Positions 8,016 through 24,655 of a DNA stretch of 64,000 nucleotides are shown here, piece after piece. This DNA comes from Acidimicrobiaceae bacterium. Its GTDB lineage: Bacteria > Actinomycetota > Acidimicrobiia > Acidimicrobiales > RAAP-2. The position numbers and the translations under genes were made by a program. The notes under the pieces are model-generated. The model saw nothing but the letters and a program-made list of their open reading frames with translations. It was not told the DNA's origin and made no database searches. Within the stretch, counting starts at the first letter, position 1. Each line of letters opens with the position of its first letter. The stretch lies in assembly GCA_003133405.1 (NCBI GenBank), contig PKXH01000093.1, forward strand, positions 5,111 through 69,110, in the 5' to 3' direction.

Positions 8016-8368
8016 CTGGTAACTATGCTCAGTGCCCTTTCATCCAGAACTTTCTTCAAGCGGCAGTCATATTGGGCATCACCCAACGGTCCCCGTCTGG
8101 CCTTGGAGGGTCACTTGATTCGTCTGCCGACACCTCAACTTGGATCGAGATTTGGGGACTCGTCGACCAGTGGTCGGTCAAATTGGCCTTGGGCTGAAAG
8201 ATCGTACCGAAGCCCAGCAAAGCCGGACCAAGAACCTTCAAAACGATTTTGAAGACGGACGAAGTGTTCATGCCTAGATTCTAAGAGTCCATAAATTGAA
8301 TCCGTTCAGTTGGGTCGGTCTGCAATGTGGGGCGACTCCAGTTGGATCAGACTTTGAGACAGTCAAGT

Positions 8369-8413
8369 AGCCAGTGGAGGGTTGCATTCTTTGCACGTTG
8401 GACCTTCAACGCC
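8369..8413 (+). repeat. Degenerate copy of the array repeat (R0b)
   Basis: AGCCAGTGGAGGGTTGCATTCTTTGCACGTTGGACCTTCAACGCC matches the consensus CCAGTG...GGTTGCA...GC.CGT.GG blocks. Lies 23 nt upstream of R1. Confidence 0.4.
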
Positions 8414-8435
8414 GATCACGATGCAATTATGCTTA

Positions 8436-8481
8436 GCCGCCAGTGCAAGGTTGCAGATCTGTTGCGTCGGGTCTGCGACAC
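8436..8481 (+). repeat. Array repeat R1 (~48-nt tRNA-Leu-3'-end-like unit)
   Basis: GCCGCCAGTGCAAGGTTGCAGATCTGTTGCGTCGGGTCTGCGACAC. Confidence 0.85.
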
Positions 8482-8581
8482 GAGGCTGTTTTAACTCCGC
8501 TGAGCCACATCGTTGGCCGGCATTATTCGCCATCGCTCCCTTGTTGCCGCCAGGGTCGGGAAGTAAAGTAGTAAAGGCGAT

Positions 8582-8812
8582 ATGAACAATAGCGTTGATG
8601 AACTCATCCTTGATCTGCTTGAGTGGCTTGGACCAAAGCCTCGCCCATACTCTGAGGTTCTCGACGCGTGGCGAACGTCATGCCCGCGTCTTCCAGTCTG
8701 GGAAGAAGCGAACGATCGAGGATTCATCGAGCGGCAATTCTTGATTGGGCAGGGATCGCTTATTACCGTCTCCGCCATGGGACTCAAGCACTTGAATGAG
8801 AGCCGTCCATAG
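8582..8812 (+). CDS. Hypothetical small protein (76 aa), cassette cargo
   Basis: Only sizeable ORF between R1 and R2. Same orientation as the repeats. ATG start. Confidence 0.45.
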   Translation: MNNSVDELILDLLEWLGPKPRPYSEVLDAWRTSCPRLPVWEEANDRGFIERQFLIGQGSLITVSAMGLKHLNESRP

Positions 8813-8890
8813 CTACTGGCTCCATCTAGATACTGTTTGAACATCAAAGGTGAGCAAGTGATTCTCAGTTGAGGTAGTCAATCCACCATT

Positions 8891-8935
8891 CTCCAGTGCG
8901 AGGTTGAATTTCTGTGGCGTCGCGTCTCCGACACC
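8891..8935 (+). repeat. Array repeat R2
   Basis: CTCCAGTGCGAGGTTGAATTTCTGTGGCGTCGCGTCTCCGACACC, preceded by the T-arm-like GGTAGTCAATCCACC (8873-8887). Confidence 0.8.
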
Positions 8936-9012
8936 GGTCCGTGTTAACCTGAGCCGCCTACGGCCCCTTGCAAGTTGAGTGCAGCTGTGCCGCCTATTGA
9001 GGGGCAGACGCT

Positions 9013-10605
9013 ATGCGCAAGGGGATCCGTTTTTCGACGGTTGCAGCAAGTCTTTCGTTGGTTGCCTTAAGCCTCGCCGTTGGCGGCATTTCCGCCTCGA
9101 GTGCGACCGTGCACCAAAGGGTCGAGTCCCATACGGCGACGATCATTACCCCGACGGTGAATGCTAACTACACCCTCAATCCCGAAGCTGTGCACCTCAG
9201 CGCTCAAGATCTGCATTTTCAAACCAGTAACTACACCGTTGCTCAGCAACTGACCTACATCGGCACTACTGCAATCCACGTCGGCAATATCATCGTTGTA
9301 TTGACCGCCACTGGACCGTTCTATGGCACAGTTGTCGCCGTCAATGGCCAAACACTCTCAACAAAACCGGCGACGCTAGGAGATATCTTCGAGGTTTTGG
9401 ACCTCACCGTCTCGTCGGCGACCGGAAGCGCTTCGACCGCTGGCAAGGGCGCCGGGACCGGCGCTCCGGCGCTTTCCACCTCTAAAGGCGCGAATGGCAA
9501 CTCTCCCAAAGGTTCGTCCCTTGTTGCGGAATCATCAACCGGGTCCATACAAACCGATCCAACCGCTCGCTCGGGGTCGGCGCCTCTCTTGACCGCAAAT
9601 TGTGATCCGGGCTATCCCACGCCCACTGTCACCTTCAACGCCACCGCGAACGCCGGCACGTTCAACCTCCAAGCATCCTTCAGCTGGGCAGGCCATCTCA
9701 AGTCGGCGAGTATCACCGATAACCCATCGTTTACCGTTTCCATGAGTGCAGCCGTCGCCGGAAACGGCACGTGCACCTTGAGCCAAGATCTCTTCGACGT
9801 GGATCTGCCCACGATTGAGTTCGTCATTGGCTGGGTCCCCGTCTGGATTACCCAAGACTTGTCTGCAACGGCGACACTTGTCGTCACGGCCAACGGTTCG
9901 GCCGCCATCAACGTTGGCTATAGCGCCCACGCAACGCTCGGGGCCGCGAAGCCCCAGGGTGGGTCCTGGGGCGTCATCAGAACGGGGTCGGTCACCACTC
10001 CCGTCACCACAGCGTTCAACATCACCGCCCAGGCCACACTTGATGTGCCGGTGACTTACGAGGCGGCGATCTACGGGCTCGCCGGCCTGAGCGTCACGGC
10101 GGACCCGTTTGCTGCCCTCGCGGTGAATCCCCCACCAGCGTGCAAACCGACACCCTCTCTCAAGCTCGACGGAGGCTTGAAGGGCTCGATCGGCGCCTTC
10201 GTCCACCTCGGCTCGCTCTACAGCTGGGACAACACCTTCGCCCAGTGGACGTTCTTCACGACAAACTTGATAGATCACCTCAACAACTGCCCCCCGATCA
10301 CAACCCATCTCAACATCACCACGGTCTCCAATTCGATACACACTGTCTTTACCCCCGGGGTGCCAGCGGGGAACACCATTCCCCTGGGTTCAACCGTGAT
10401 TATCCAAGACGTGGGGACGGCGAGTAAGTACAAACTGACGTTGACAGGTCCAGACGGCCTGAAGCACATTTCCAATGTGAAACCGACGGTTCCCTATAAC
10501 TACGTCCTTTCGCAATCGGGGAACTATTCGGTGAGCATTGGGGGAGGCATGGTCGGCTTCGGCAACCCGACGATCAGTAAGCAACTGACAATCACCGTGC
10601 CCTGA
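9013..10605 (+). CDS. Secreted Ser/Thr/Ala-rich protein of unknown function (530 aa)
   Basis: Signal-like N-terminus (FSTVAASLSLVALSLAVGG). Long ORF with GAGGGG upstream of the ATG. No recognisable catalytic motif. Confidence 0.6.
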   Translation: MRKGIRFSTVAASLSLVALSLAVGGISASSATVHQRVESHTATIITPTVNANYTLNPEAVHLSAQDLHFQTSNYTVAQQLTYIGTTAIHVGNIIVVLTATGPFYGTVVAVNGQTLSTKPATLGDIFEVLDLTVSSATGSASTAGKGAGTGAPALSTSKGANGNSPKGSSLVAESSTGSIQTDPTARSGSAPLLTANCDPGYPTPTVTFNATANAGTFNLQASFSWAGHLKSASITDNPSFTVSMSAAVAGNGTCTLSQDLFDVDLPTIEFVIGWVPVWITQDLSATATLVVTANGSAAINVGYSAHATLGAAKPQGGSWGVIRTGSVTTPVTTAFNITAQATLDVPVTYEAAIYGLAGLSVTADPFAALAVNPPPACKPTPSLKLDGGLKGSIGAFVHLGSLYSWDNTFAQWTFFTTNLIDHLNNCPPITTHLNITTVSNSIHTVFTPGVPAGNTIPLGSTVIIQDVGTASKYKLTLTGPDGLKHISNVKPTVPYNYVLSQSGNYSVSIGGGMVGFGNPTISKQLTITVP

Positions 10606-10743
10606 CCATTCCCACCCGTAACTAGAAGCACCCTCCGCACTTCCTTCAAGACCCAGAGTCACTTAGGGCGACTGGCTAGCGAATGTAGAGTTTCGTTCAT
10701 CATGTGGGTGAACATCAGTGGGGCACTTCAGGATTCCAACCGA

Positions 10744-10787
10744 GCCGCCAGTGCAAGGTTGCAGACTTGTCACGTCGGGTCCGTGAC
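10744..10787 (+). repeat. Array repeat R3
   Basis: GCCGCCAGTGCAAGGTTGCAGACTTGTCACGTCGGGTCCGTGAC. The right stem is fully Watson-Crick (GTCACG/CGTGAC). Confidence 0.85.
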
Positions 10788-11056
10788 TTGAAGTGTGTTT
10801 GCTTGCCTCCAGACCTTCTCTGCGTCGTAGAATGTGGAGATGGTGGACTCAGAACGCTTCTCAGGAATGTTGCCGAATCATTCGCGGCGGCTTCCATGGG
10901 CAGTACGTCATCGCCATCCTCAAAACCGACTGCTACGGCGACTCTCTTGGATCTGGAGCAATCCAATCACGATTGCAATCCCAAGTCAGATTCACAATCG
11001 TCGGGAAGACATTCGTGGTCTTGCCGGACGTCTTAGGCGACGGCCCTAGTCGATCA

Positions 11057-11104
11057 GTCGCCAGTGACTGGTGGCAGACCTGTGGCGTCGGGTCTCCGAC
11101 ACCA
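11057..11104 (+). repeat. Array repeat R4
   Basis: GTCGCCAGTGACTGGTGGCAGACCTGTGGCGTCGGGTCTCCGACACCA. Confidence 0.85.
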
Positions 11105-11191
11105 GTGATGACCCGTTTGGTTGACATCCCACAGGCGCAAAGACCATGGAGTGCAAAGTTCGCTCGGGCGTTCGTGACCGAGCTCAAGGAT

Positions 11192-11548
11192 TTATTCCAG
11201 TTCTTTCCAGTGCTCTCGACCGAAGAGACGACCGTATCGAGCAGTGAGGGAGGGACCCTCATCGCGGGCAGTGTCCGGATGCAGAACGAGGGTACCTTCG
11301 GGTGCCGGTAGAGCCGCTACTTGCTCGTCGGTCAACGCACAACGGATCAATGTCGTTGTGATTTCCGTGATTTGATCTCGGTCTACAAATCGCACTCCGT
11401 GCTTGGTCTTAACGGCAATACCGTCGAAGATGTCTAACTCCGGGATCCACAAGACATGTTCGACCGTTCCGAACTGGGTATCCGTGGAACTGAGTAAGGG
11501 TGTGCCAACTGGCACCCCTCGATATGAAATCGGCTGTCCTTCGTCCAT
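11192..11548 (-). CDS. Hypothetical protein, possibly PRC-barrel-like (118 aa)
   Basis: Only plausible ORF between R4 and R5. Opposite orientation to the repeats. The PRC-barrel resemblance (GTVEHVLWIP...DGIAVKT) is weak. Confidence 0.4.
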   Translation of the reverse strand: MDEGQPISYRGVPVGTPLLSSTDTQFGTVEHVLWIPELDIFDGIAVKTKHGVRFVDRDQITEITTTLIRCALTDEQVAALPAPEGTLVLHPDTARDEGPSLTARYGRLFGREHWKELE

Positions 11549-11674
11549 GGGCTTCCCTTCCTAATTCACTCGAATCTACCTGAGGTGTTGGATTCAAGAG
11601 TTAAGTCGCCCGCTGGCGCGTATGGGGTGGCGCCCGTCGTGGTCGGCAATCGACGGAGTCGACGGTTCATCAAG

Positions 11675-11737
11675 GTGTGGGTGGTTCAAGTCTCCAGTGC
11701 CTGGTTGCAGATCTGTTGCTGCGGGTCTCCGACACCA
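11675..11737 (+). repeat. Array repeat R5 with an extended tRNA-Leu T-arm remnant
   Basis: GTGTGGGTGGTTCAAGTCTCC (11675-11695) matches tRNA 7989-8011 GTGTGGGTTCAAGTCCCGTCTCC. It is followed by AGTGCCTGGTTGCAGATCTGTTGCTGCGGGTCTCCGACACCA. Confidence 0.85.
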
Positions 11738-11791
11738 ACCGTTCCGCGGTCGCGATCTGATTAAGGATGTTTCCGACCTAGCGTTGCTGAC

Positions 11792-12880
11792 GTGAAACTC
11801 TTCACCCGGTCCAGGCTCGCTGTCGGCGTAGTAACTGTGATGGCTATCCTTGTTGCGTACTGCGTTCCAATCGGTAATATCTCACGCGCTTATGCTTCGA
11901 ACGCACCGAAGGGCGCTGCCACACTTTTTTCGGTGGTGAGAAAGATTAGCTTCGGCAATTACGGTCCAGGCGCGAGCATTGCCGCTGTTGACGGACAGTC
12001 AATTTTCCTGACCGGAACCTTCCTTCACGGCAACAGCGCTCCAGCAACTCTGGTTCGTGTCGATCTCCAAAGTTTCACGGTGACGGCGCGAGCAAGGCTT
12101 CCAAGCGTCACGAGCGTCGCCTATGGCGACGACGCACTCTGGTGGGCCACCGGTGCGCCGCTCGGCAACGCTGGCACCACATTGACTCCCGGCCATGGGC
12201 GATTACTACTCAAGGTTGACCCTACGAGCCTGAAGGTCTTGGCACGCTTCGTGCTTCCAGGGCCGACGCTGCTGGTCACGGTGGCGCAGGGCAACGTCTG
12301 GGTTGCGACATCGACAGATCTATTCCGCGTTAACCCAAAGACCGGTGCGATCATTGCTAAGGTCGCTCTCGGTTTTTCCCCGGTGGCACTGGCTCCGTCT
12401 TTCAACAGTGCGTGGCTCTATGCACTTGGCGGTACAGCTAGAAGCCACTTGATATTGGCCGACTACTCTGCGGTCTCCGGACACCGTCTCGGTATCCGTC
12501 AGATTGCGGACTTCAGTGGCGGCCCGCTGGCTGTGGTACGTGGGGGAGTTTGGATTCCGGTGCAGAGCACCAAGACTCAGTCCACGACAGCGCGACTCTT
12601 CAAAGGTCGACGCTTCACTCCCAGCTCATCAGTGGGAAAGTTCACATTTGATACCCAAGCGTATGTCGAAGCCAACATTCTGTGGCTGATCGACGCGGGC
12701 GGACGTGGGCCGACAGTGTGCGCCAATCCCGCGAACGGGATCATACGAGCCAAAGGGAGTCCGGTCGGAGTTGAGTACGGAGCTGCGGCGATTGACGGGG
12801 GCAGTACGTACCTGCTGCGCAACACTGGTACCAACGAATCTCTGCTCAAGATAGTCGCTTCGTCGGATTGCTCTCGATGA
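11792..12880 (+). CDS. Secreted or membrane-anchored protein of unknown function (362 aa)
   Basis: GTG start. N-terminal hydrophobic anchor (LAVGVVTVMAILVAYCV). Long uninterrupted ORF. Confidence 0.6.
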   Translation: MKLFTRSRLAVGVVTVMAILVAYCVPIGNISRAYASNAPKGAATLFSVVRKISFGNYGPGASIAAVDGQSIFLTGTFLHGNSAPATLVRVDLQSFTVTARARLPSVTSVAYGDDALWWATGAPLGNAGTTLTPGHGRLLLKVDPTSLKVLARFVLPGPTLLVTVAQGNVWVATSTDLFRVNPKTGAIIAKVALGFSPVALAPSFNSAWLYALGGTARSHLILADYSAVSGHRLGIRQIADFSGGPLAVVRGGVWIPVQSTKTQSTTARLFKGRRFTPSSSVGKFTFDTQAYVEANILWLIDAGGRGPTVCANPANGIIRAKGSPVGVEYGAAAIDGGSTYLLRNTGTNESLLKIVASSDCSR

Positions 12881-12964
12881 GACCGCGTTGACGCAATGCG
12901 ATTATTTGCACATCGCCAATTCTGACGGGTCAAACCGCCAATATTCCGAGCCACATGGAACATA

Positions 12965-13513
12965 ATGGGGAACGTGAGTCGCACAACACCCACGCTGTTC
13001 GTCATGGTTGGTCTGCCAGCATCTGGGAAGAGCACACGGGCCAAGCAGATTGAAGAAGAACGTCGCGCCTTGAGGCTGACTCCCGACGAGTGGATGATCC
13101 CACTGTTCAACGACAATGACGCCAACGGGAAGCGTAACGTCCTCGAGGGCCGCTTTATTTGGCTCGCGCTTCGCGCCCTGCGCCATGGTATCGACGTCGT
13201 CTTGGACTTCGGTGTCTGGGGCAAGGACGAGCGAACCGCCCTCCGAGCCCTCGCCGCCGCGGCGGGGGCGTCGTGCGAACTCGTCTATCTCGAGATTGAC
13301 GAAGACCAACAGCGACGACGGCGTGACGCTCGTGCTTCTGAGGATTCTGAGACGACCTTCGACATCTCCGATGAAGACCTTGATGAGTACCGGCGACGTT
13401 TCGTGCCTCCCAATGACGCCGAACTATCAGAAGCCGAACTTGACCCGCCTCCGGCTGGCTACACCAACTGGAGCTCGTGGGCCTCCGAATGGTGGCCAAC
13501 ATCGTTCCAGTGA
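12965..13513 (+). CDS. P-loop (AAA_33-type) kinase/ATPase
   Basis: Walker A VMVGLPASGKST near the N-terminus. 182 aa, typical size for a small-molecule or polynucleotide kinase fold. Confidence 0.75.
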   Translation: MGNVSRTTPTLFVMVGLPASGKSTRAKQIEEERRALRLTPDEWMIPLFNDNDANGKRNVLEGRFIWLALRALRHGIDVVLDFGVWGKDERTALRALAAAAGASCELVYLEIDEDQQRRRRDARASEDSETTFDISDEDLDEYRRRFVPPNDAELSEAELDPPPAGYTNWSSWASEWWPTSFQ

Positions 13514-13563
13514 GCGTCACGCTGCTCGCCAGTGTTTGGGACCGACTCGCTCCCTCTAATGAA

Positions 13564-13612
13564 GCCGCCAGTGCCCCTTGGTGGCAGAGCGAGCGGGACG
13601 GCCCTGCGACAC
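13564..13612 (+). repeat. Array repeat R6a (diverged right half)
   Basis: GCCGCCAGTGCCCCTTGGTGGCAGAGCGAGCGGGACGGCCCTGCGACAC. The left stem GCCGCC/GGTGGC pairs at all six positions. Confidence 0.7.
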
Positions 13613-13646
13613 GAACCCACACGGTTCACCTCATCCGCTAAAGAGA

Positions 13647-13682
13647 GGTTGCAGACCTGTTACGTCGGGTCTCTGACACCAG
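13647..13682 (+). repeat. Array repeat R6b (right two-thirds only)
   Basis: GGTTGCAGACCTGTTACGTCGGGTCTCTGACACCAG. Lacks the CCAGTG left end. Lies 34 nt after R6a. Confidence 0.75.
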
Positions 13683-13763
13683 CCAGAAACTCACGACAAT
13701 TCGCTGTCGTTTGATACCAGAACTGGCAAGTGGGTTTTCTAGCATTCTCTGCCCAGTCGGCCT

Positions 13764-14099
13764 CTATTTCGAAGTTGCGAGTAAGTAAATGACCATGGCT
13801 AGTAAGAGGATGAACGAGGCAACGAACACCAAGCCATTTATTGCTCTGACAACGGAGACAATCCGCTTGAGCCAGGTCGGGGTCTGAGAAACGTGACGTC
13901 GATAAAGGACTGCCCAAACAGGAGTTAGCAGGGCGACCAGGACCATCGGAAGCAATAAGGCAACCAAGATCGATCCCGAAGTCACAGCTACCTTTATACC
14001 GTGTAGTTCGCATTCCTTCGCCTTGACTGCGATTGGCAAATCGCAGTTTTTGTAGTGCTCTGCACTAAAGACCAATCCTGTCGTTAATTGAGTCGCCAA
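13764..14099 (-). CDS. Hypothetical small membrane protein (111 aa)
   Basis: Two hydrophobic helices. Lies in a visibly AT-richer pocket. No homology recognisable. Confidence 0.4.
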   Translation of the reverse strand: MATQLTTGLVFSAEHYKNCDLPIAVKAKECELHGIKVAVTSGSILVALLLPMVLVALLTPVWAVLYRRHVSQTPTWLKRIVSVVRAINGLVFVASFILLLAMVIYLLATSK

Positions 14100-14188
14100 T
14101 TCTTGATACCAGACCCATCACGTCGGTCAGCGTCCACACGAATTGCGGTTGGGGACCTAGATCGTTCCCATCTCTCGATGTCTGGGAG

Positions 14189-14647
14189 TTGAAGAGACAG
14201 ACTGTTGGAGTGACGGGCATTAGTGGCATTGTGCGCCGCGCAACTTCAATGGACCTTCAAGCGGTGTTGGAGCTTGACCGCATTGCGCCAGTTGGTCACG
14301 AGCGGGGTGAACTTCTCACGACTCGTGTGCAGTCCGGCGAGGTCATCCTCCTTGAGCACGAAGGGCGCGTATCAGGCTACGCCGTCATTAGATCCCACTC
14401 GTTCTTTGGGCGCGACTTTGTCGAGTTGCTGGCGGTGGCCGCTAGCGAACGCCGTCACGGCGTTGGCAGCCATTTACTCCAGCAAGCCGTCGCTCTGTCC
14501 TCTAGCAGTCGGATCTTCACCTCGACCAATCGATCCAATATTCAGATGGTCGGCATGTTAGAGAAGGAAGGCTGGAAATTCAGTGGACAACTTGAGGGGA
14601 TCGACGAGGGAGATCCAGAGCTGGTTTATTACAAAACCTCACCGTGA
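14189..14647 (+). CDS. GNAT-family N-acetyltransferase
   Basis: Motif A RRHGVGSHLLQQAV. The start is uncertain: TTG at 14189 or in-frame GTG at 14231. Confidence 0.75.
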   Translation: MKRQTVGVTGISGIVRRATSMDLQAVLELDRIAPVGHERGELLTTRVQSGEVILLEHEGRVSGYAVIRSHSFFGRDFVELLAVAASERRHGVGSHLLQQAVALSSSSRIFTSTNRSNIQMVGMLEKEGWKFSGQLEGIDEGDPELVYYKTSP

Positions 14648-14684
14648 GTTCCTCTTCGACACAATCAAGACTCGGACGGATCAA

Positions 14685-14728
14685 GCCGCCAGTGAAAGGG
14701 GGCAGATCGTTTGCGTCGGGTCGCGGAC
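14685..14728 (+). repeat. Array repeat R7
   Basis: GCCGCCAGTGAAAGGGGGCAGATCGTTTGCGTCGGGTCGCGGAC, preceded by the T-loop-like GGATCAAGCC. Begins 38 nt after the GNAT stop. Confidence 0.8.
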
Positions 14729-14876
14729 TTAGCGGTTCTCAGATATCTCACTAGACACTTGGGCATCCGTAACGACCGAGGCGCCGATGCGTGAACTCTT
14801 CGTCGCCTGTTTCGCCGCTCGACGCGACGCTAAGGCTTTGTGCGAAAACAAAGCTAACTATAAGTAGTATGACGCC

Positions 14877-15407: not shown

Positions 15408-15432
15408 TCGATTTATGGTCTTCTGGTGGCGA

Positions 15433-15763: not shown

Positions 15764-16450
15764 GTGAGTAAGAAGGTGGTGGTCGCAGTTGTCAGCGCCT
15801 TGGTCGTTGTGGGCGCACTGGGGGTTGCGGCGGGGCGGCAATGGGGGTCAGCGCCGACGTCGCCGACGTCATCGACCACCAGCACGCTTCGCCAGGTCCC
15901 GCAACCTGAAACGGCAATATGGCCCTTCGCTTCGACCGTGACACGATTTGGTGACCCAGTACTGGCGGCCCAGGCGTTCGCCACGGACTACCTGGGAATG
16001 GTCACTCCAATAATGGGTGCCTTTCAACAGGGCGATAGTCGTTCGGGTGAAGTTCCAGTCAGAGCCACACCAACCGGCGCCGTGACTTCGATTCTGGTAC
16101 GAGAGTTGACTTTGGCGAACTCGTGGTGGGTAATTGGCGCGTCATGTACGGACATCGTCGTGGCGGCCCCTTCGTCATCTGAAAGCATTTCTTCACCAGT
16201 GAAACTCCGAGGACGAAGTACCGCATATGAAGCGGTCGTCAACGTCGAAGTTCGCCAGGACGGGACGCTCGCCGCGCTGAAGAGTGACACCGTGATGGGT
16301 GGCTCCATGGGTGTCATGGGCGCGTTTACTAAGTCGATGGCGTTCACAGTGCCGTCGTCTCGAGGAGGAGCGCTCTTGTTCCGCACGCTCTCCGCCAAGG
16401 ATGGGCATGTCATTGAGGCCAGCGTCGTCCGCGTTGCTTTTCTGAAGTGA
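15764..16450 (+). CDS. Membrane-anchored protein with a Gmad2-type Ig-like domain (tentative)
   Basis: N-terminal TM segment, Ser/Thr linker and a C-terminal beta-rich domain (ISSPVKLRGRSTAYEAVVNVEVRQDG...) resembling Gmad2. Confidence 0.55.
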   Translation: MSKKVVVAVVSALVVVGALGVAAGRQWGSAPTSPTSSTTSTLRQVPQPETAIWPFASTVTRFGDPVLAAQAFATDYLGMVTPIMGAFQQGDSRSGEVPVRATPTGAVTSILVRELTLANSWWVIGASCTDIVVAAPSSSESISSPVKLRGRSTAYEAVVNVEVRQDGTLAALKSDTVMGGSMGVMGAFTKSMAFTVPSSRGGALLFRTLSAKDGHVIEASVVRVAFLK

Positions 16451-16527
16451 TGTGCCACTCAATGCCGGCGGCGGTCCTCGGCACTATCGGACCAAAGCAG
16501 AAGCGTTAGCCGAAGTAGATTCAACCA

Positions 16528-17274
16528 ATGGTTGACAACAATCGGAAGCGAGCCACGGTGATCGGCCTGATTTCTGTCGCAACGATTGTCGTCGTGGCTC
16601 TGATCGTTGCGAATAGAGCGCAGAGTAATCGGCCTTCGGCGCCACAGTCGGTCAACGCATCTGCCGGCAATGGCTTCGCCAACGTGAGTTGGTCACGGCC
16701 CACGTCAACCGGGGGTCGCGAGTTGACAAGATATATCGTGACCCCACATCCGGCTAATGGTGCGTGCGTCACCACGGCCGCGACCACTACGTGCACCATC
16801 TGGGAACTGACCAATGGAACGTCGTATACGTTTACGGTTGTTGCGAAGAACGCTAAGGGGGCCGGTCCGAGTTCGAGCCCTTCGAGCGCGGTCACACCGA
16901 GAACTTCGATTCGAGTGCTGCCGATCTGTGACGTGGGCGTCGTCAGACCGACCAAAGCGGTCTCTGCGCAGGTTGTCGCTGCCGTCTCCGCCTACTATGC
17001 AGCACGACATCTGACCCCTATCAAGTTCGTGCGAAGCCAAGAGACGATTCTCAATGTCCACGAGTGGCCAGTTGGCTTCAATTACTGCCGGAATGTGGGC
17101 GCAGGCGTGAGTGGCGAAGGCGGATTCGTCCCCTCGAACGCCACCGCGGCGGTGATGGTGCTTGTGGATCACAAGCCTGATCCGGTCACCGGATTCTCAA
17201 CACATTTCGTAAGCGTGGCACTGATTCCAAGTGTTGGTTGGAGGGTCGTCGGCGAGTTCACTGGGTGGCTCTAG
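16528..17274 (+). CDS. Membrane-anchored fibronectin type III domain protein
   Basis: PSAPQSVNASAGNGFANVSWSRPTSTGG...YTFTVVAKNAKGAGPSS is a clear FN3 signature. Confidence 0.65.
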   Translation: MVDNNRKRATVIGLISVATIVVVALIVANRAQSNRPSAPQSVNASAGNGFANVSWSRPTSTGGRELTRYIVTPHPANGACVTTAATTTCTIWELTNGTSYTFTVVAKNAKGAGPSSSPSSAVTPRTSIRVLPICDVGVVRPTKAVSAQVVAAVSAYYAARHLTPIKFVRSQETILNVHEWPVGFNYCRNVGAGVSGEGGFVPSNATAAVMVLVDHKPDPVTGFSTHFVSVALIPSVGWRVVGEFTGWL

Positions 17275-17332
17275 CGCATAGTGGCATCCATGAGGCGGCC
17301 CCCAATGCCTATCAGGGCAATGAGGTCTCGGG

Positions 17333-17380
17333 CTTCCAACGCAAAGTTGCACTTCTGTTGCGTCGGGTCGCCAACACCAG
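17333..17380 (+). repeat. Array repeat R9
   Basis: CTTCCAACGCAAAGTTGCACTTCTGTTGCGTCGGGTCGCCAACACCAG. Confidence 0.8.
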
Positions 17381-17402
17381 TCAGATTTCGGATGCTGAAC
17401 CG

Positions 17403-18221
17403 TTATAAGACCGAGCTCGGCTTGTGGGCGAGGATCGTGAACGACAGTGGAATTCGGGGACGACCTTCGGGTACGACGAGCAAGCCCGACTCGGTCTCCT
17501 CCAGCCAGGGGAACTGATGAAATAACGTCCAGTCGTGTTCGGTCAGCGAATCAAGCACGAGACCGTGTCCAAGTAATGCCGCAACCATCTCGCCAATGGA
17601 ATGGTTCCACTCGTAGGTTCTAATGGCGCTGAGTTCTTCGCCGTCAGTGTATGTAGAAGTGCTGTCAAAAATTTGAGGTTCATCGGGATCTTCGTAGTAG
17701 CTGTAGACGACTCGCTCTCCGTCACCGTCGAAGCACGAAGAAAACGGGTGAACGTCGTGGAGATACAGCCTGCTCCCCGGAGCGAGGAGGTCCGCCACGA
17801 CCTCACCCCACGCAGCCACGTCCGGCAGCCAGCAAAGCGAACCGAGGCTGACGTAAACAACGTCGAATCGCTTCCGCTGGAGTGCCTCGGACGCGTCGTA
17901 GACATTCGCGCAAACGAAGGACGCGTGCTCGGATAGCCCTGCGCGTTCCGCGAGTGAATTGGCCTCGTCAATGGCCGCTGTAGAAAAGTCGAGACCGGTG
18001 ACGTTCGCCCCGGCTCTGGCCCAACTCAAAGTATCCATCCCGAAATGACATTGCAGGTGTACCAGTGTTTTTCCTTCTAGGTCTCCTAGCGCCTCGACCT
18101 CTCGAGGTGGTGGTCCTGGTGCGTTGTGAAGCCAACCTTCAACATCGTAGAACCGAGACTTAGCGTGCACCTCAACGCGACTATTCCAATTCTTAAGATT
18201 GGATTCGAGTCGAGGTTCCAT
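17403..18221 (-). CDS. Class I SAM-dependent methyltransferase
   Basis: HLQCHFGMDTLSWARAGANVTGLDFS (motif I region). 272 aa. Confidence 0.8.
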   Translation of the reverse strand: MEPRLESNLKNWNSRVEVHAKSRFYDVEGWLHNAPGPPPREVEALGDLEGKTLVHLQCHFGMDTLSWARAGANVTGLDFSTAAIDEANSLAERAGLSEHASFVCANVYDASEALQRKRFDVVYVSLGSLCWLPDVAAWGEVVADLLAPGSRLYLHDVHPFSSCFDGDGERVVYSYYEDPDEPQIFDSTSTYTDGEELSAIRTYEWNHSIGEMVAALLGHGLVLDSLTEHDWTLFHQFPWLEETESGLLVVPEGRPRIPLSFTILAHKPSSVL

Positions 18222-18390
18222 TCGCTCAGAGTACTTTCACCGAATGAGTCCATGGGGAACCTCAAACCACCCTCACTTGTTTTCCAAAAGTCCGTTGAGC
18301 CTCCAGTACAAGGAGGCATTCCTGTTGCTTCGGGCCTCTGGCTTTTGACATGAATCGACATGTTTCGATCTCGGGTGGGAGGATTGAGTT

Positions 18391-18765
18391 GTGAAACGCG
18401 CATTAATCGATTGGGACTTCGCCGCCGGAGGTATCTGGATGATTAGGCCACCAGGCGATGCAGCCCCAGCGCCCGCAGAAGATCATCGCAGCCAATGGAG
18501 TGGTGCTCCTCTCGACCGCTCTAAGCAAATACGACCTTGGAGCGATCTATTGACAGTTTCACTCTTGGACAGATTGCAGAGTTGGAACGATCGGGGCTGC
18601 ACATTATCGCGACCTCCCTTCGGGACTCAGTTCGATGAACAAGATTGGGATTCTTTCTACCGTGATGGACGAGAATTGGCTGAGTCGACTCAGGTGGAGC
18701 TTGGCAATCACTGGCAAGTTCTCTGGGCTGCGGATGGCGCCTGGCACTTCGTACGACTTCCTTAG
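18391..18765 (+). CDS. Hypothetical protein (124 aa, Trp-rich)
   Basis: GTG start. Fills the space before R10. No recognisable motif. Confidence 0.45.
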   Translation: MKRALIDWDFAAGGIWMIRPPGDAAPAPAEDHRSQWSGAPLDRSKQIRPWSDLLTVSLLDRLQSWNDRGCTLSRPPFGTQFDEQDWDSFYRDGRELAESTQVELGNHWQVLWAADGAWHFVRLP

Positions 18766-18793
18766 TTGCTTTCGGAACAACCTTGACCGGTTA

Positions 18794-18856
18794 GACGCCA
18801 GTGTCTGGCAGCGGCCGGTGCGTCGTAGGAGACTCATAGCGTCGGGTCTTCGCCAC
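18794..18856 (+). repeat. Array repeat R10 (with a ~19-nt internal insertion)
   Basis: GACGCCAGTGTCTGGCAGCGGCCGGTGCGTCG[TAGGAGACTCATAGCGTCG]GGTCTTCGCCAC. Confidence 0.7.
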
Positions 18857-18885
18857 GTGAACCCTCGTCACTGTACGGTCTGTTC

Positions 18886-19398
18886 ATGACAGAACTCCCA
18901 ATGTTCGACGCCGGTGGCGGAAGCCTTGTGTCGTTCGTTCGTCTCGACAGTGCGTCGTTGGAGGATCAGGGCGTCCCGTCACCGTTCGCTTGTTCTCTTG
19001 TCATCGTTCAATGGGGCCAACAAGTGCTGCTCGGCTTCAACGTCAGCCGGCAGCAGTGGGAACTACCGGGCGGAGCGGTGGAGCCGGGTGAATCGGCTCA
19101 CGAAGCGGCGCTTCGGGAACTAGCGGAAGAAACTGGTATCCGGGTTCATCGAATCTCGCTCGTCGCACGAGCTGAATTCATCTTCGGAGGCGAAGCGACC
19201 ACATACCTGGCCGCAGTGTTTGCCGTCGTTCTTGGCAGCCCCCCGGAACTAGTTCAGAGTGACGAGTTGAACAGTTTCATTTGGTGGGATCCGACTGGCG
19301 AGTTGTGGGATGGTCTGAGTCCCCTTGACGCAGAGGTCATTCGTCGCTGCCTTTCTCACGAGGAGGGGGCTCGCGCGCCGTCCGCACCTGGCCTCTGA
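18886..19398 (+). CDS. NUDIX hydrolase
   Basis: Nudix box GGAVEPGESAHEAALRELAEETGI. Confidence 0.82.
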   Translation: MTELPMFDAGGGSLVSFVRLDSASLEDQGVPSPFACSLVIVQWGQQVLLGFNVSRQQWELPGGAVEPGESAHEAALRELAEETGIRVHRISLVARAEFIFGGEATTYLAAVFAVVLGSPPELVQSDELNSFIWWDPTGELWDGLSPLDAEVIRRCLSHEEGARAPSAPGL

Positions 19399-19446
19399 AC
19401 CCGGGGGAGATTGAAGTTTAAATCGCGAATGCGCCATAGTTAACGA

Positions 19447-19878
19447 ATGACTGTAGATGGAACCTCCAATGTGCGAACTCTTGATCCCGTCGTGGTGGAG
19501 GCGTTGAAGGCGATTACACAGCGTGTCTACCACCGTCGTGGACCAAGGCTCCAGGATAAATTTCGTAGCTATCACAGCATGCTGGATAGCCATTCACGCG
19601 ACTACGCGATCTCGGCGTTCAAGCATTTGCGACATGGCGGCTACGAATTACCGCCATTCTTAGTGCGGCGTTGGGCCGTTGCTAACGGGTGGAAGCGGAC
19701 TGACGCACAATTGCTCGATGATTACGCGGCAGGAGTATTGGCGGGCGTGCAGTATCACCATGCCGACCCTTTTGGTCGTGGTGCCATAAGTATCTGGCGA
19801 AGGGATGCTGTAGGAAAGGAGCCTTGGCAGGATCCGGGTCGGCCCGAGCAAGGCGTGCCACTCACTCGCAGAGACTAA
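19447..19878 (+). CDS. Hypothetical protein (143 aa)
   Basis: ATG start. Co-oriented with the NUDIX gene in the same repeat-bounded unit. Confidence 0.5.
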   Translation: MTVDGTSNVRTLDPVVVEALKAITQRVYHRRGPRLQDKFRSYHSMLDSHSRDYAISAFKHLRHGGYELPPFLVRRWAVANGWKRTDAQLLDDYAAGVLAGVQYHHADPFGRGAISIWRRDAVGKEPWQDPGRPEQGVPLTRRD

Positions 19879-19921
19879 CGATTTGAGTTGTGCCGATAGG
19901 GACTCATCGATTTAGGCGAGA

Positions 19922-19966
19922 GCCTCAGCAAAGTGGCATTCCTGTCACGTCGGGTCTCCGATACCA
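19922..19966 (+). repeat. Array repeat R11
   Basis: GCCTCAGCAAAGTGGCATTCCTGTCACGTCGGGTCTCCGATACCA. Confidence 0.75.
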
Positions 19967-20025
19967 ACAATCACCGGCACTTCGAGTCTGGTTTCGATAA
20001 GTAACGCATTCATCACCGGCTCAGA

Positions 20026-20301
20026 TTGGTTAGTGACTATTTTCGCGGAGACTCAGAGCTCTGCTTGACTGATGGGATGTCCTCGGTGGCCATCACCATC
20101 TACGGAGTGTGCGCCGTCTCATTCATGATGGCGATGTACGCGCTTGAGCGGCGTAACAAGTGGTTCATCCTGGCATTTGCGCTCGGGTGCCTCTTATCTA
20201 GCGTCTACGGATTCTTGTCTGGAGCGTGGCCCTTTGGCGTCGTCGAGTTCGTGTGGTCTGGAATCGCGATTCGTCGATACCGGAGCACAGACACGCTCTG
20301 A
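20026..20301 (+). CDS. Small integral membrane protein
   Basis: Three hydrophobic segments. The start is uncertain: TTG at 20026 or ATG at 20077. Confidence 0.5.
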   Translation: MVSDYFRGDSELCLTDGMSSVAITIYGVCAVSFMMAMYALERRNKWFILAFALGCLLSSVYGFLSGAWPFGVVEFVWSGIAIRRYRSTDTL

Positions 20302-20336
20302 CTCATGGCCTAATAGTTATCTCTTAGAGATGCGTT

Positions 20337-21101
20337 GTGACTGTTTTGCAGATTGCGGGGGCCGTGATGAGAGTGCGCCCGCGCTGGTACTGCCATCCCA
20401 GATCGGAATACGCGACATTAGTCGACGAGCACGCCAAAGGCGACGACGATCCTAAACTGTTCCATATGATCGACCACATTCCCGACACGGACGAGCGAAG
20501 AACTCACTGGGAATCCGTCTACGAGCTCAACCAGGTCGACGGCGTCAGCTGGTATCAACAAGCGCCACTTGTGACTTTGGAACTTGTGGACATTCTCGGC
20601 GTCGAGAAAGACGCAGGGGTGATTGATGTCGGAGGCGGCGCGTCAATCCTCGTCGATTATCTGTTATCCAGAGGCTTCACCGACCTGACCGTCCTCGATA
20701 TCTCGACGAGCGCGCTTCGTGTGAGCCGAGAGCGGGTTGGCCCGGATGCTCATGTGACGTGGGTAGCCCACAATCTCCTGACATGGGAACCAGCGCACCC
20801 TTACGACCTTTGGCACGACCGAGCCGTGTTCCACTTCCTGTTGCCCCACGAGATCAAGGTCTACCAAGATCTGGTACGCCGTTCAGTTGCTCCCGGCGGA
20901 TCCGTGATCATGGCCACGTTCGCACCGGACGGGCCGGAGTGGTGCTCTGGACTGCCGGTGACCCGCTACAACGCCGCTCAACTAGGGGGAATCCTCGGTG
21001 ACGAGTTCACAGTGGTCGTTCAGCGCAAAGAAGTCCACACGACGCCCAGCGGCGCTCTTCAGCCGTTCACCTGGATTGCCGCTTCACGGAACCTGGCTTA
21101 A
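20337..21101 (+). CDS. Class I SAM-dependent methyltransferase
   Basis: VIDVGGGASILVDYLLSRGFTDLTVLDIS (motifs I and II). Confidence 0.8.
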   Translation: MTVLQIAGAVMRVRPRWYCHPRSEYATLVDEHAKGDDDPKLFHMIDHIPDTDERRTHWESVYELNQVDGVSWYQQAPLVTLELVDILGVEKDAGVIDVGGGASILVDYLLSRGFTDLTVLDISTSALRVSRERVGPDAHVTWVAHNLLTWEPAHPYDLWHDRAVFHFLLPHEIKVYQDLVRRSVAPGGSVIMATFAPDGPEWCSGLPVTRYNAAQLGGILGDEFTVVVQRKEVHTTPSGALQPFTWIAASRNLA

Positions 21102-21156
21102 CTCTTGGGGATGTTCCACGTCGTTAAGTCGGAGTCATGGTCACTGGGTGCGAATC

Positions 21157-21195
21157 CTCCAGTCGAAGATTATTGACGTCGGCTCTCCGACACCA
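21157..21195 (+). repeat. Array repeat R12 (shortened middle)
   Basis: CTCCAGTCGAAGATTATTGACGTCGGCTCTCCGACACCA, preceded by the T-loop-like GGGTGCGAATCC (21146-21157). Confidence 0.7.
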
Positions 21196-21213
21196 ACTAA
21201 GCAATAATGGAAT

Positions 21214-21861
21214 ATGGGGAATCCCTATTGGCCGTTGTTCGATCTTCGAATCAGGACACCGCGCGTCGAAATTCGCTTACCGAACGATGACGTCCTGGTA
21301 GAGCTCACGCGACTCGCTCTCAAGGGGGTTCATGATCCGAATGTTATGCCTTTCCTCCATCCTTGGACCGATGAGCCCTCGCCTCAGCTCGAACGAGGAA
21401 TGTTGCAGTGGGGGTGGCGTCATCGCGCCGAATGGAGTTCGAATAACTGGAGTTTCAACGGCGCCGTCTTCGTCAATGGTGAAGTGGTCGGTGTCCAAAG
21501 CTTGATGGCCACTGACTTCGCAACCCTTCGCTCGGTTAAGACTGGTTCGTGGCTGGGCGTCGCGTATCAGGGTAAGGGAATCGGCAAAGAGATGCGCTCG
21601 GCGATACTCCATTTCGCCTTTGAGACGCTGGAAGCGTTAGAGGCACGTAGCGGGGGATTTATCGACAACGCCTCTTCACTAGGCGTTTCACGCGCATTCG
21701 GGTACGAGGACGACGGACGACGGTCAGTTCTGCGTCGGGGCATTCCCACAGAGATGCTCGAGCTACGCCTTGATTGTTCGAAGTGGCGGGAGATCGCGCA
21801 TTCATCTACTGAAGTTTCTGGTTTTGAAGGCTGCCGAGATTTCTTTATCGGCCCTAAGTAG
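21214..21861 (+). CDS. GNAT-family N-acetyltransferase (RimJ/RimL-like)
   Basis: AYQGKGIGKEMRSAILHFAFE motif A. 215 aa. Starts 19 nt after R12. Confidence 0.8.
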   Translation: MGNPYWPLFDLRIRTPRVEIRLPNDDVLVELTRLALKGVHDPNVMPFLHPWTDEPSPQLERGMLQWGWRHRAEWSSNNWSFNGAVFVNGEVVGVQSLMATDFATLRSVKTGSWLGVAYQGKGIGKEMRSAILHFAFETLEALEARSGGFIDNASSLGVSRAFGYEDDGRRSVLRRGIPTEMLELRLDCSKWREIAHSSTEVSGFEGCRDFFIGPK

Positions 21862-22017
21862 GGGCGATGGTTCATAAGATTTCGCGGCGCCGCCCCGGGA
21901 GGCGATATTGAACCCGGTTAGGCAAACGCCATTGCAAGAGCGCGAAGCAGCGTGATCTGCATTGGTGACGATTGTGATTCCGGGCGCGCCCTTTAGGTTG
22001 GGGGTAACGGGCACGAC

Positions 22018-22518
22018 GTGGTGTCAAAGAGGAGTGACGGCATGGAGATTATTCGTAATCCTGACGGGAGCCTGGTGGTTCCCATTCCAGAGGGGCGACA
22101 TCACGACAGTGGCGACGCAGTTGACGCTCCGACCGGCGACCACGCTGACGTGGTCGCTGAAGCGACGACTCGGTTGTTACATCCCGGTGAGGGAGGCTAT
22201 AGCGAAGCTCTTGCCGAATGGGATCTTCAACAAAATCCCGATCGCGCCCCCGCCGTCTCGACGGCGAGTGGGCGAGAAGAAGCGATGAACGTCGTTCACA
22301 CGCTGGCTGAATCGCCCGACCACGATGTTGCCGGTGCGCTCAAAGACGTCAACGACTCCGAAGCGAGCGGCGAGGCGCTGCGACACGTGCTCATTGGGGG
22401 GACTCACTCGGTCGAGGCCTTCTCCGAAGAAGTGGCGGAAGCCGAAGGGGGCGAACCACTCCCGGCCCACAAGATGACCAAGATCATTGGCGAAGTCTTA
22501 GCCGAGCTGGACAAGTAA
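22018..22518 (+). CDS. Hypothetical acidic protein
   Basis: Asp/Glu-rich. Alternative ATG at 22042. No motif recognised. Confidence 0.45.
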   Translation: MVSKRSDGMEIIRNPDGSLVVPIPEGRHHDSGDAVDAPTGDHADVVAEATTRLLHPGEGGYSEALAEWDLQQNPDRAPAVSTASGREEAMNVVHTLAESPDHDVAGALKDVNDSEASGEALRHVLIGGTHSVEAFSEEVAEAEGGEPLPAHKMTKIIGEVLAELDK

Positions 22519-22588
22519 TCGGTCCGTCTTTATTGATCCGGGCAGTTGAGGGATTAGTTCGACGATCGTGAGTTAATGAGGGAAAGCC

Positions 22589-23083
22589 TCAGTCATACGT
22601 GAAACTACTGATAACTCTTCCGATGTTGGCATTTACAATGACGTTCCATTGGTGGTTTGGTGTGGTGCCGCCCCGGGGACCAAGCGACACGATTGGCGGC
22701 CCGGTGATCCGAACCAGGTATGCGGGTAGTGCTTTTGGAACGAATGACTTCGTCCCGATCCAGTTGTGGATGATCTCATTTTTGTCGACGTACCCGCCCA
22801 GAGATTCGAAAACAACTCGCCATCGCTCCAAGGAGTTGTAGTCGGCTCTCGCGATCCGTGCGGCCCCTGAGGGCGTGACTCTAACCAGAGACAACTGCGA
22901 ATCGGACAGACGTGTGAACGTAATCTCCCCGTAGACCAGCATGTTCTTGGAGAGGGGCCTAAACGCGTCACGGTAAGGAGCTGAAGGACCACTCGAGGTC
23001 CCAACACTAAGCACGATGGCAACCGTAGCTGCACCGACCAAGGCCCCAACTTGAATCAGTGGAATTGCATTACGCCATTTCAT
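22589..23083 (-). CDS. Hypothetical membrane-anchored or secreted protein (164 aa)
   Basis: N-terminal hydrophobic segment IPLIQVGALVGAATVAIVL. Confidence 0.5.
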   Translation of the reverse strand: MKWRNAIPLIQVGALVGAATVAIVLSVGTSSGPSAPYRDAFRPLSKNMLVYGEITFTRLSDSQLSLVRVTPSGAARIARADYNSLERWRVVFESLGGYVDKNEIIHNWIGTKSFVPKALPAYLVRITGPPIVSLGPRGGTTPNHQWNVIVNANIGRVISSFTYD

Positions 23084-23134
23084 ACATGTAAGCCCAGAAC
23101 CTTGTGTGCCGAAAGTTCACGTAGGCGTGACCGA

Positions 23135-23179
23135 GTGCCAATGGGTGGTTGCTCTCCTGTCGCGTCGGGTCTCCGACAC
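23135..23179 (+). repeat. Array repeat R13
   Basis: GTGCCAATGGGTGGTTGCTCTCCTGTCGCGTCGGGTCTCCGACAC. Confidence 0.8.
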
Positions 23180-23201
23180 TAGATCGTCTCATCGCGACCG
23201 T

Positions 23202-23244
23202 CGTCAGTGAATGGTTGCAGATCTGTCATGTCGGGACTCGATAC
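23202..23244 (+). repeat. Array repeat R14
   Basis: CGTCAGTGAATGGTTGCAGATCTGTCATGTCGGGACTCGATAC. Lies 22 nt after R13. Confidence 0.75.
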
Positions 23245-23251
23245 GGCGACT

Positions 23252-24514: not shown

Positions 24515-24655
24515 TCTCCGCCACGGCGACCCCTAACAATGTTCGATGCTTCACCACGTTCGCAAGTTCAATCTATGTGTTGAATTGGGTGCCGGAACTC
24601 GGCCTTAGTTCATAGGCGGCGCGGACCTCTCTGTGGGGTGACAGCGCCATGAGTA

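Follow-up and report, generated by a model that had tools for sequence, protein, structure and literature searches.

We report a tRNA-anchored gene array in a 64,000-nucleotide stretch of an Acidimicrobiaceae genome assembly (GCA_003133405.1, contig PKXH01000093.1, positions 5,111 to 69,110; hereafter the window). Directly downstream of its tRNA-Leu(GAG) gene, between 8.36 and 23.25 kb, lie at least 17 co-oriented copies of a site of ~50 nt, with one more at 37.9 kb, and the segments between such sites recur in other genomes as discrete units in different order. We consider it likely that these segments are small non-autonomous cassettes, inserted through site-specific recombination at the 3' end of the tRNA. 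The strongest mechanistic clue is that site and tRNA share one 3' end. Integrons, the textbook stockpile of promoterless gene cassettes, are the comparison point for this locus, which would be an integron-like array made from different parts: a tRNA end, sites that are conserved in sequence as expected for double-stranded DNA, and a recombinase encoded elsewhere.

Sites that share the end of tRNA-Leu(GAG)

An nhmmer profile of the site was trained on 11 window copies, and the position of each copy is given as the last base of its GACAC core. The consensus reads (C)AAGCCGCCAGTGCAAGGTTGCAGAnCTGTTGCGTCGGGYCTCCGACAC(CA). Its borders are sharp: across 155 copies from many genomes, the information content rises at C.AGCCGCC and ends after ACACCA. 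In the whole window, nhmmer returned no significant match on the minus strand and none in the housekeeping flanks at 1 to 8 kb and 42 to 64 kb. Two degenerate copies (13563-13612 and 18810-18856) add to the nhmmer set, and a 35-nt core pattern with at most 3 mismatches matched 5 times in the window and 0 times in 100 shuffles. The GC content drops from ~0.65 to between 0.53 and 0.59 after the tRNA. The anchor, the array and the individual copies are as follows.

7932-8016, plus strand: tRNA-Leu(GAG) at the head of the array, the sole tRNA gene in the window (ARAGORN; Rfam tRNA, 49 bits)
8017-25922, plus strand: variable cassette array, ~17.9 kb with ~20 units (blastn of L144 against the window, gene tables, GC content)
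8363-8412, plus strand: weak site copy, first of a doublet with 69 bp spacing, GACAC end 8412 (nhmmer E=0.0017)
8433-8483, plus strand: site copy at the end of the first unit (8017-8481), GACAC end 8481 (nhmmer 59 bits)
8886-8936, plus strand: site copy, GACAC end 8934 (nhmmer 48.6 bits)
10741-10791, plus strand: site copy with variant 3' end GTGACTTGA, GACAC end 10789 (nhmmer 48.6 bits)
11054-11104, plus strand: site copy nearest to the consensus, GACAC end 11102 (nhmmer 57.5 bits)
11687-11737, plus strand: site copy, GACAC end 11735 (nhmmer 52.7 bits)
13563-13614, plus strand: degenerate site copy, first of a doublet with 67 bp spacing, followed by GAACCCACACGG (alignment score 17, null maximum 14)
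13631-13681, plus strand: site copy, GACAC end 13679 (nhmmer 54.3 bits)
14682-14732, plus strand: site copy at the end of the GNAT cassette, GACAC end 14730 (nhmmer 41 bits)
15430-15480, plus strand: site copy at the end of the DUF4232 cassette, GACAC end 15478 (nhmmer 52.9 bits)
17329-17379, plus strand: site copy 3' of the Gmad2 and fn3 genes, GACAC end 17377 (nhmmer 50.7 bits)
18296-18346, plus strand: site copy at the end of a unit whose single gene is a minus-strand methyltransferase, GACAC end 18344 (nhmmer 29 bits, E=3.5e-8)
18810-18858, plus strand: degenerate site copy between two cassettes found apart in L079 and L044 (alignment score 19, blastn)
19916-19966, plus strand: site copy 3' of the NUDIX and DUF1889 genes, GACAC end 19964 (nhmmer 43.5 bits)
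21162-21195, plus strand: site copy with only the 3' part kept (GACGTCGGCTCTCCGACACCA), GACAC end 21193 (nhmmer 15 bits, E=7e-4)
23131-23181, plus strand: site copy, first of a doublet with 65 bp spacing, GACAC end 23179 (nhmmer 46.9 bits)
23199-23246, plus strand: site copy with a degenerate 3' end, GACAC end 23244 (nhmmer 26.5 bits)
37875-37925, plus strand: isolated degenerate site copy distant from the main array, GACAC end 37923 (nhmmer 16.7 bits, E=2.4e-4)

The last of these may be an old site within an older, partly conserved part of the island. An initial annotation of the window had described a sharply bordered repeat of ~48 nt that follows the tRNA in a single orientation and spares the housekeeping blocks, and the profile bears out all of this. 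Most of the copies it listed were recovered as well, except that it missed the one at 18296-18346, that its entry at 13647 lies within the 13631 copy, and that its entry at 13524 is the start of the 13563 copy. The weak copies that it placed at 10806, 27417, 32262 and 38807 were not upheld, with scores of 7 to 10 where the null distribution from housekeeping sequence has its 95th percentile at 10 and its maximum at 14.

The last 11 nt of the tRNA gene, GTCTCCGACAC (8006-8016), recur as the 3' core of the sites and are shared unchanged with every well-preserved one. The tRNA ends in ...AAGTCCCGTCTCCGACAC and the site in ...GCGTCGGGTCTCCGACAC(CA); CCA is not encoded by the window tRNA, where ACAC is followed by TGG. 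Just upstream of the shared 11 nt, the site reads GTCGGG where the tRNA reads GTCCCG, and farther upstream it continues into a conserved arm of ~37 nt that is unrelated to the tRNA. The array therefore lies where tRNA-targeting islands lie, at a tRNA 3' end, with direct repeats of that end at the ends of its elements. The same identity between the tRNA and site 3' ends was seen in 14 other loci, among the matches listed below.

The core also varies together with the tRNA of its host. The base preceding CTCCGACAC in the sites is T or C and is the counterpart of the last T-stem base in the tRNA; it agreed with the host tRNA in 29 of 30 sites from T-type hosts and in 17 of 17 from C-type hosts. 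This match may arise because the site core is copied from the tRNA at insertion, with a crossover upstream of that base, or, alternatively, because cassette exchange is restricted to lineages with the same tRNA type. Whichever the cause, a core base that tracks the host tRNA indicates that sites and tRNA are functionally coupled.

Scanning 185,579 species-representative genomes with CGTCGGGYCTCYGACACCA yielded at least 116 stretches, which were analyzed as 8-kb pieces and to which all counts of loci, copies and units in relatives refer. Nearly all of these listed matches come from Acidimicrobiaceae or Acidimicrobiales metagenome-assembled genomes (MAGs), with peat, bog, fen and soil as sources. 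A profile search of the pieces found 299 copies; of the 74 loci with more than one copy, 73 had all of theirs on one strand. In 14 loci, the array has tRNA-Leu(GAG) at its upstream end, oriented as the sites are, and these tRNA-headed loci keep the upstream secG and SBP_bac_5 genes (52 to 78% identity); the array anchor is thus orthologous across a family- or order-level clade.

Other arrays begin at a partial tRNA-like sequence, AGCGTGCGGGTTCA-CGTCGGG-YCTCCGACACCA, which we refer to as the type-3 site. It corresponds to the 3' half of tRNA-Leu with the CC-to-GG change of the cassette site and carries three fixed substitutions relative to the tRNA. Type-3 sites follow genes such as nrdJ, acyl-CoA dehydrogenase (ACAD) and putA, and were located at L011:6690-6723, L108:5890-5923, L025:3925-3959 and L020:7270-7304, as well as in 11 further places (L numbers denote loci in other genomes). 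They may indicate secondary arrays on the chromosome, or else the places where large cargo blocks in the tRNA-Leu island end.

Discrete cassettes, their turnover and their cargo

When all loci were cut at the end of GACAC, 253 units were obtained among the listed matches, with a median length of 786 bp and 0 to 3 genes each. All-against-all blastn grouped them into 21 cassette families that are common to several loci, with differing order and neighbors. Family F1, for instance, directly follows the tRNA in L060 and is internal in L046, L061, L081, L082, L086 and L103, and the first unit of the window (8017-8481) is homologous to an internal unit of L120. The GNAT cassette of the window is a stand-alone unit between two sites in L085 (82% identity over 594 bp, the full L085 unit), and the window interval 18344-19964 consists of two units that occur separately in L079 and L044. 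Homology between cassettes begins at nt 1 to 5 past GACAC, both where the tRNA precedes the cassette and where a site does. Homologous cassettes share their own 3' site at 81% identity, while their upstream sites are 66% identical against a background of 68%. The site is thus a 3' component of its cassette, comparable to attC, and discrete cassettes with a 3' site are reshuffled between arrays in the manner of integron cassettes.

Between species, the content of the array is replaced completely. The nearest relatives (79 to 81% identity in the substrate-binding protein, SBP) include a sister species that has both flanks in common with the window and no cassette at all. In the two assemblies of this species, L144 and L145, the interval after the tRNA spans 6.8 kb and holds a different set of cassettes (GNAT, aspartyl protease, His_Phos_1, AHSA1 and methyltransferase), with seven detected sites and an eighth, degenerate one past the last cassette. 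By blastn, homology of the window to L144 resumes at 25923 (L144 position 18554), at 76 to 82% identity, and covers a 90-aa open reading frame (ORF), a 312-aa ORF, a methyltransferase gene and a PETase-like gene. Since homology returns only there, the variable array of the window extends from 8017 to ~25.9 kb. Another sister, L146, has nothing in common after the tRNA with either the window or L144/L145.

The cassette genes of the window with Pfam support are the following, eight on the plus strand and one on the minus strand; several further cassette proteins have no Pfam family.

12965-13513, plus strand: AAA_33 kinase
14189-14647, plus strand: GNAT
14877-15407, plus strand: DUF4232
15764-16450, plus strand: Gmad2
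16528-17274, plus strand: fn3
17403-18221, minus strand: methyltransferase
18886-19398, plus strand: NUDIX
20337-21101, plus strand: methyltransferase
21214-21861, plus strand: GNAT

In the relatives, the cargo comprises GNATs, alpha/beta hydrolases, DinB/MST proteins, NUDIX proteins, methyltransferases and DUF4232, together with toxin-antitoxin parts (PIN, ParE, Phd, MazF) and the phosphotransferases APH and CPT. Judged from these family matches, the spectrum resembles that of chromosomal-integron cargo. The strand of the cassette genes could not be assigned reliably by the longest ORF or by GC3, and we therefore took the longest ORF per strand of ~150 cassettes from other genomes and compared both strands with Pfam. 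The two strands came out about equal in this survey, with 56 families matched on the array strand and 65 on the other. With genes facing either way, the cassettes cannot depend on one upstream promoter for their expression, and they probably carry expression signals of their own. F1 cassettes open with two TTGTACAA palindromes, ~20 nt apart and directly before the ATG (L060:7066-7130, and likewise in L046, L081, L086, L103 and L082), a placement that suggests an operator or promoter carried by the cassette. We conclude that the array serves as a store of accessory genes with slow turnover (acetyltransferases, methyltransferases, hydrolases, NUDIX proteins, toxin-antitoxin pairs and phosphotransferases) and not a one-promoter expression platform.

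The central proposal of the initial annotation, a tRNA-anchored cassette system with sites unlike attC and without intI or attI, is supported by these data on strand, anchor and cassettes. Its expectation that relatives would differ by whole cassettes with breakpoints at the sites agrees with what was seen, the sister species has both flanks and no common cassette, and the one-strand arrays agree with its view that the repeat is not a genome-wide repetitive extragenic palindromic (REP) sequence or miniature inverted-repeat transposable element (MITE). Other claims need to be narrowed. The copies were to be confined to orthologous tRNA-Leu loci, which holds for the 14 heads of the secG-SBP-tRNA-Leu(GAG) type but not for the arrays at type-3 sites. 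That copies follow the stop codon of a co-oriented ORF is roughly correct in the window (8 versus 1) but fails in the relatives, where both orientations occur. The likeness to integrons, finally, extends to the cassettes and their 3' sites but not to a shared promoter, given the random gene orientation in relatives.

Two features lie beyond the last strong sites of the window. A minus-strand gene at 24656-25489 encodes a protein of the metallo-beta-lactamase fold, for which identical contigs carry a precomputed match to PF23023 (Anti-Pycsar_Apyc1). At 32733-37760, also on the minus strand, two tandem modules each combine a ferric-reductase-like membrane protein with an FMN_bind protein, one of them with ApbE, and the FMN_bind genes contain low-complexity repeats of the GTCGTT and GGCCGAGTCGTC type.

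A proposed route of insertion and its rivals

In the mechanism that we propose, a free circular cassette would bear the arm, the core and the cassette start in this order, and a recombinase encoded in trans would pair the cassette core with the identical core at the tRNA end or at another site. Both this intermediate and the exact crossover position are presumed. The cassette would enter directly after ...GACAC, preferentially at the tRNA, whose end would be rebuilt; the arm and core of the cassette would come to lie upstream of whatever had earlier followed the tRNA, and older cassettes would shift downstream. Repeated insertion would produce a co-oriented array, and recombination between two sites would excise a cassette, so that the tRNA end would take the role of attI and the 50-bp sites that of attC. 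Insertion of this kind would account for the co-orientation of the sites, the GACAC junctions, the association of each cassette with its 3' site, the identity of core and tRNA end, and the conserved anchor. As for the class and identity of the enzyme, it is most likely a tyrosine recombinase encoded outside the array.

Several observations weigh against this reading, and the first of them concern the recombinase. No recombinase gene was found at 8 to 42 kb of the window, in or beside the array; hence there is neither an IntI beside the array nor an integrase of its own in any of its elements, as a tRNA-targeting island would have. Integrases are also rare in the relatives (3 integrase-like ORFs in the 116 listed loci). 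The one divergent tyrosine integrase of ~390 aa (439-aa query ORF) that lies ~200 nt from a site, a type-3 site in L020 sharing CGTCGGGYCTCCGACAC, belongs to the integrase family of actinomycete integrative and conjugative elements (AICEs), and its homologues (65 to 69%) are AICE integrases at an ACAD hotspot without any site. We rejected this type of integrase as the dedicated recombinase on account of these homologues and since its adjacency to the site is not maintained in its closest relatives, L131 and L147. In L131 (90% identical), a GH15 gene separates the integrase from the site, and a large serine recombinase (L131:5782-7215; Resolvase, Recombinase and Zn_ribbon_recom domains) ends exactly at the type-3 site, which heads an eight-copy array and has the AICE-type tyrosine integrase 2.8 kb away on its other side. 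In L147, no site was present in the ~380 nt of contig upstream of the integrase.

Some of the arrays themselves are also difficult to reconcile with the proposal. Those headed by a type-3 site beside other genes lack the tRNA head, and 39 "empty" units of 66 to 69 bp are not accounted for by simple circle insertion. These units form doublets of sites at near-constant spacing (66 to 69 bp), found in the window at 8363-8483, 13563-13681 and 23131-23246 and in 36 further cases elsewhere. One class of doublet spacer holds GAACCCACACGG, the reverse complement of the 5' half of the tRNA T-arm, and sits after a site with a replaced 3' end such as GGGCCACAGAGCA; the proposed insertion leaves this class unexplained.

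Finally, the arrays did not change within species. The window population, traced by exact-protein look-ups, has been assembled from many peat metagenomes, among them the "WOOD18" assemblies from Stordalen Mire and several samples of the Joint Genome Institute (JGI), and we found no gain or loss of a cassette in ~24 of its contigs (99.9 to 100% identity). L136, which had appeared to be a cassette-polymorphic variant of this population, was discarded since the apparent difference consists of scaffold gaps. Nor was any cassette gained or lost between L144 and L145, which differ by a single 64-bp indel. The arrays are invariant within species, with no sign of activity on recent time scales; turnover is complete between species and undetectable within them, as in sedentary arrays. 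They may reflect a dedicated system that is active or else a fossil record of great orderliness. We regard as evenly balanced the stronger proposal, an independent capture system parallel to integrons in which the end of the essential tRNA-Leu(GAG) gene would serve as the permanent primary site, a dedicated recombinase encoded elsewhere would insert, excise and reshuffle hundreds of single-gene cassettes with ~50-bp non-hairpin sites, and pseudo-tRNA sites would head secondary arrays.

Two further candidates, one for the enzyme and one for a carrier of the site, were rejected. The sole tyrosine recombinase of the window is a XerD-type protein (46362-47303) in a recN-pyrG-NUDIX-xerD context, which scored 116 bits against the integron-integrase model TIGR02249 with its cut-off of 265 bits; as it is an ordinary XerD in its usual gene context, XerCD/dif recombination was dismissed, and we know of no dif-like motif in the site. 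A phage, plasmid or viral carrier of a corresponding attP was likewise dismissed, as IMG/VR yielded one chance match in a coding region and the phage and plasmid collections none.

The ACAD hotspot mentioned above is a second conserved integration hotspot of Acidimicrobiales in its own right. It comprises leuCD-greA-leuB-ilvE-ACAD followed by a tyrosine integrase, HTH_17 (Xis-like), RepSA, a variable region and lgt, and occurs in L128, L129, L130 and L140 to L143 (integrase at ~10001 or 8001), with no copy of the 50-nt site in these loci. One of these loci comes from a sample that also holds the window population.

The units could instead be a passive graveyard, that is, leftovers of autonomous elements targeting tRNA-Leu (AICEs, prophages or tycheposon-like islands) whose integrases were lost and whose attR remnants persist between pieces of cargo that were never mobile as units. 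The window population indeed includes a variant with such an element, L003, in which an AICE of ~8.3 kb (L003:11700-20050) lies between the tRNA and the first cassette, at the same locus as position 8016 of the window. The genes of this AICE encode a Phage_integrase (a tyrosine integrase), FtsK_SpoIIIE and Rep_1, and it also contains an insertion sequence of the rve type. A direct repeat of 13 bp, CCGTCTCCGACAC, borders the element on both sides, and the element provides the tRNA with an encoded CCA. Its insertion shows that integration at the tRNA 3' end does take place in this population, and remnants of its attR arm (CCCAGAAAC.ATGGAACCTCAGA) occur inside the arrays of L046, L103 and L086. 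The type-3 sites that terminate larger gene blocks, the occasional degraded integrases, as in L118, and the stasis within species point in the same direction. Random decay, however, would not let one unit recur, with both of its end points preserved, in several genomes and in changing neighborhoods, and the ~250 units (median 0.8 kb) almost never contain integrase remnants. Moreover, the 3' site travels together with its cassette, and all units share a single 37-nt arm upstream of the core that is unlike the attR arm of the AICE. For this latter reason, and because the AICE is present in one population variant only, its integrase was rejected as the cassette recombinase. Overall, we judge a graveyard origin to be unlikely.

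A repeat of REP or MITE type, or a regulatory one (a terminator, an mRNA-stabilizing 3' element or a tRNA-like processing signal) that is dense here by chance, would explain why the site is intergenic, often shortly past stop codons in the window, why it contains a short GTCGG-GYCT-CCGAC inverted repeat and an ACCA end like that of a tRNA acceptor, and why copies were spread over seven contigs of one short-read MAG. Against this reading, RNAalifold found essentially no structure in 17 window copies and no consensus structure on either strand in 140 distinct copies from many genomes. Two hand-proposed two-stem models of the window copies performed no better than column shuffles and showed no covariation, and the pairs of highest mutual information in the 140 copies were local and not helical. 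Folds of the single-stranded DNA varied between copies, with z-scores mostly between 0 and -1.5, no better than shuffles. A structured RNA or an attC-like or tRNA-like single-stranded hairpin was rejected on these grounds; conservation as sequence, without structure, fits a site bound by protein as double-stranded DNA and not a hairpin of the attC type.

Nor do the location and borders of the site fit a repeat of this kind. Rfam matched only the tRNA in the window and no RNA family at the site, and a terminator or promoter role was rejected as matches to such signals were not enriched and the sites are not terminator-like. The site has asymmetric borders without the terminal inverted repeats of a MITE, and it lacks the palindromic structure of REP sequences and bacterial interspersed mosaic elements; in the window and the 8-kb pieces from relatives, copies occur only in co-oriented arrays, none of them in the 34 kb of housekeeping flanks of the window. 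Its orientation follows the array and not the adjoining gene, and its core tracks the host tRNA. A repeat of this kind is, in our assessment, very improbable.

We give hardly any credence to a true but divergent integron, or a cluster of attC sites lacking integrase (CALIN), with unusual attC sites and an IntI-type integrase elsewhere in the genome: although cassette size, cargo types and a 3' site on every cassette recall integrons, the sites show conservation of sequence and form neither an R/L-box palindrome nor a stable hairpin, the cassette genes face both ways, an IntI was not found (the Xer-type protein of the window falling far below the model cut-off), and complete integrons have been reported absent from Actinobacteria (PMC4889954).

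Significance and comparison with known systems

Members of the site family are common among Acidimicrobiales MAGs, many of which stem from metagenomes of peat and soil, and full-text literature searches turned up no account of arrays like these in either Acidimicrobiales or Actinomycetota. If active, the system would represent a second, independent solution to modular gene capture and would account for a conserved hypervariable locus in Acidimicrobiales; given the enzyme, its ~50-bp site and 11-bp target could then be tested as a recombination tool. The site profile is in any case a sequence handle for harvesting the accessory genes of uncultured Acidimicrobiales from metagenomes.

The arrays resemble sedentary chromosomal integrons in being long and co-oriented, with small cassettes (median below 1 kb), a travelling 3' site on each cassette and a fixed primary site at the head. 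Their cargo is similarly rich in acetyltransferases, toxin-antitoxin pairs, DinB-like proteins and proteins without assigned function, and it turns over fully between species at a conserved location. Unlike those of integrons, the sites described here are conserved in primary sequence and lack the attC hairpin; their primary site is the 3' end of a tRNA and not an attI beside intI, with no adjoining recombinase, and the cassette genes face both ways without a common promoter of the Pc type. Since there is no conserved hairpin and no integron integrase, and since the genes face either way, the array is not an integron.

Elements that target a tRNA gene regenerate its end, newer ones displace older ones, and the island location is conserved across species (10.1101/2020.12.28.424599; PMC4119200). 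Islander-type, additive and tycheposon islands therefore share with the locus described here the conserved tRNA target, the regenerated tRNA end with a direct repeat left downstream, the displacement of older elements away from the tRNA and a location conserved across species. However, the elements of such islands bring their own integrase, measure kilobases to tens of kilobases, occur once or twice per genome and leave repeats that are plain partial tRNAs, whereas here an array holds ~20 units that are mostly single genes without an integrase, and only 11 nt, preceded by a conserved 37-nt non-tRNA arm, are shared with the tRNA. None of the units contains the recombinase and primase/helicase replication module of a tycheposon, so that the likeness to tycheposons is confined to how the island as a whole behaves.

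As in cis-mobilizable elements (CIMEs) and integrative mobilizable elements, the units are non-autonomous, bounded by att-like sites and accreted in tandem at one place, with a recombinase that presumably acts in trans. CIMEs, however, are few and large and derive from a recognizable parent integrative and conjugative element with the same att sites, whereas the present units form a large family (~300 sampled, in many species) for which we detected no parent element that carries the 50-bp site. The AICEs of the pSAM2/SLP1 type are represented at the very same tRNA-Leu end by the element of L003, with its Int, FtsK-type Tra and Rep proteins; in contrast to the cassettes, AICEs are autonomous and measure 8 to 20 kb, and the attR arm of the L003 element is unrelated to the cassette site. 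What sets the Acidimicrobiales arrays apart from each of these systems is thus their combination of an integron-like logic with the chemistry of tRNA islands.

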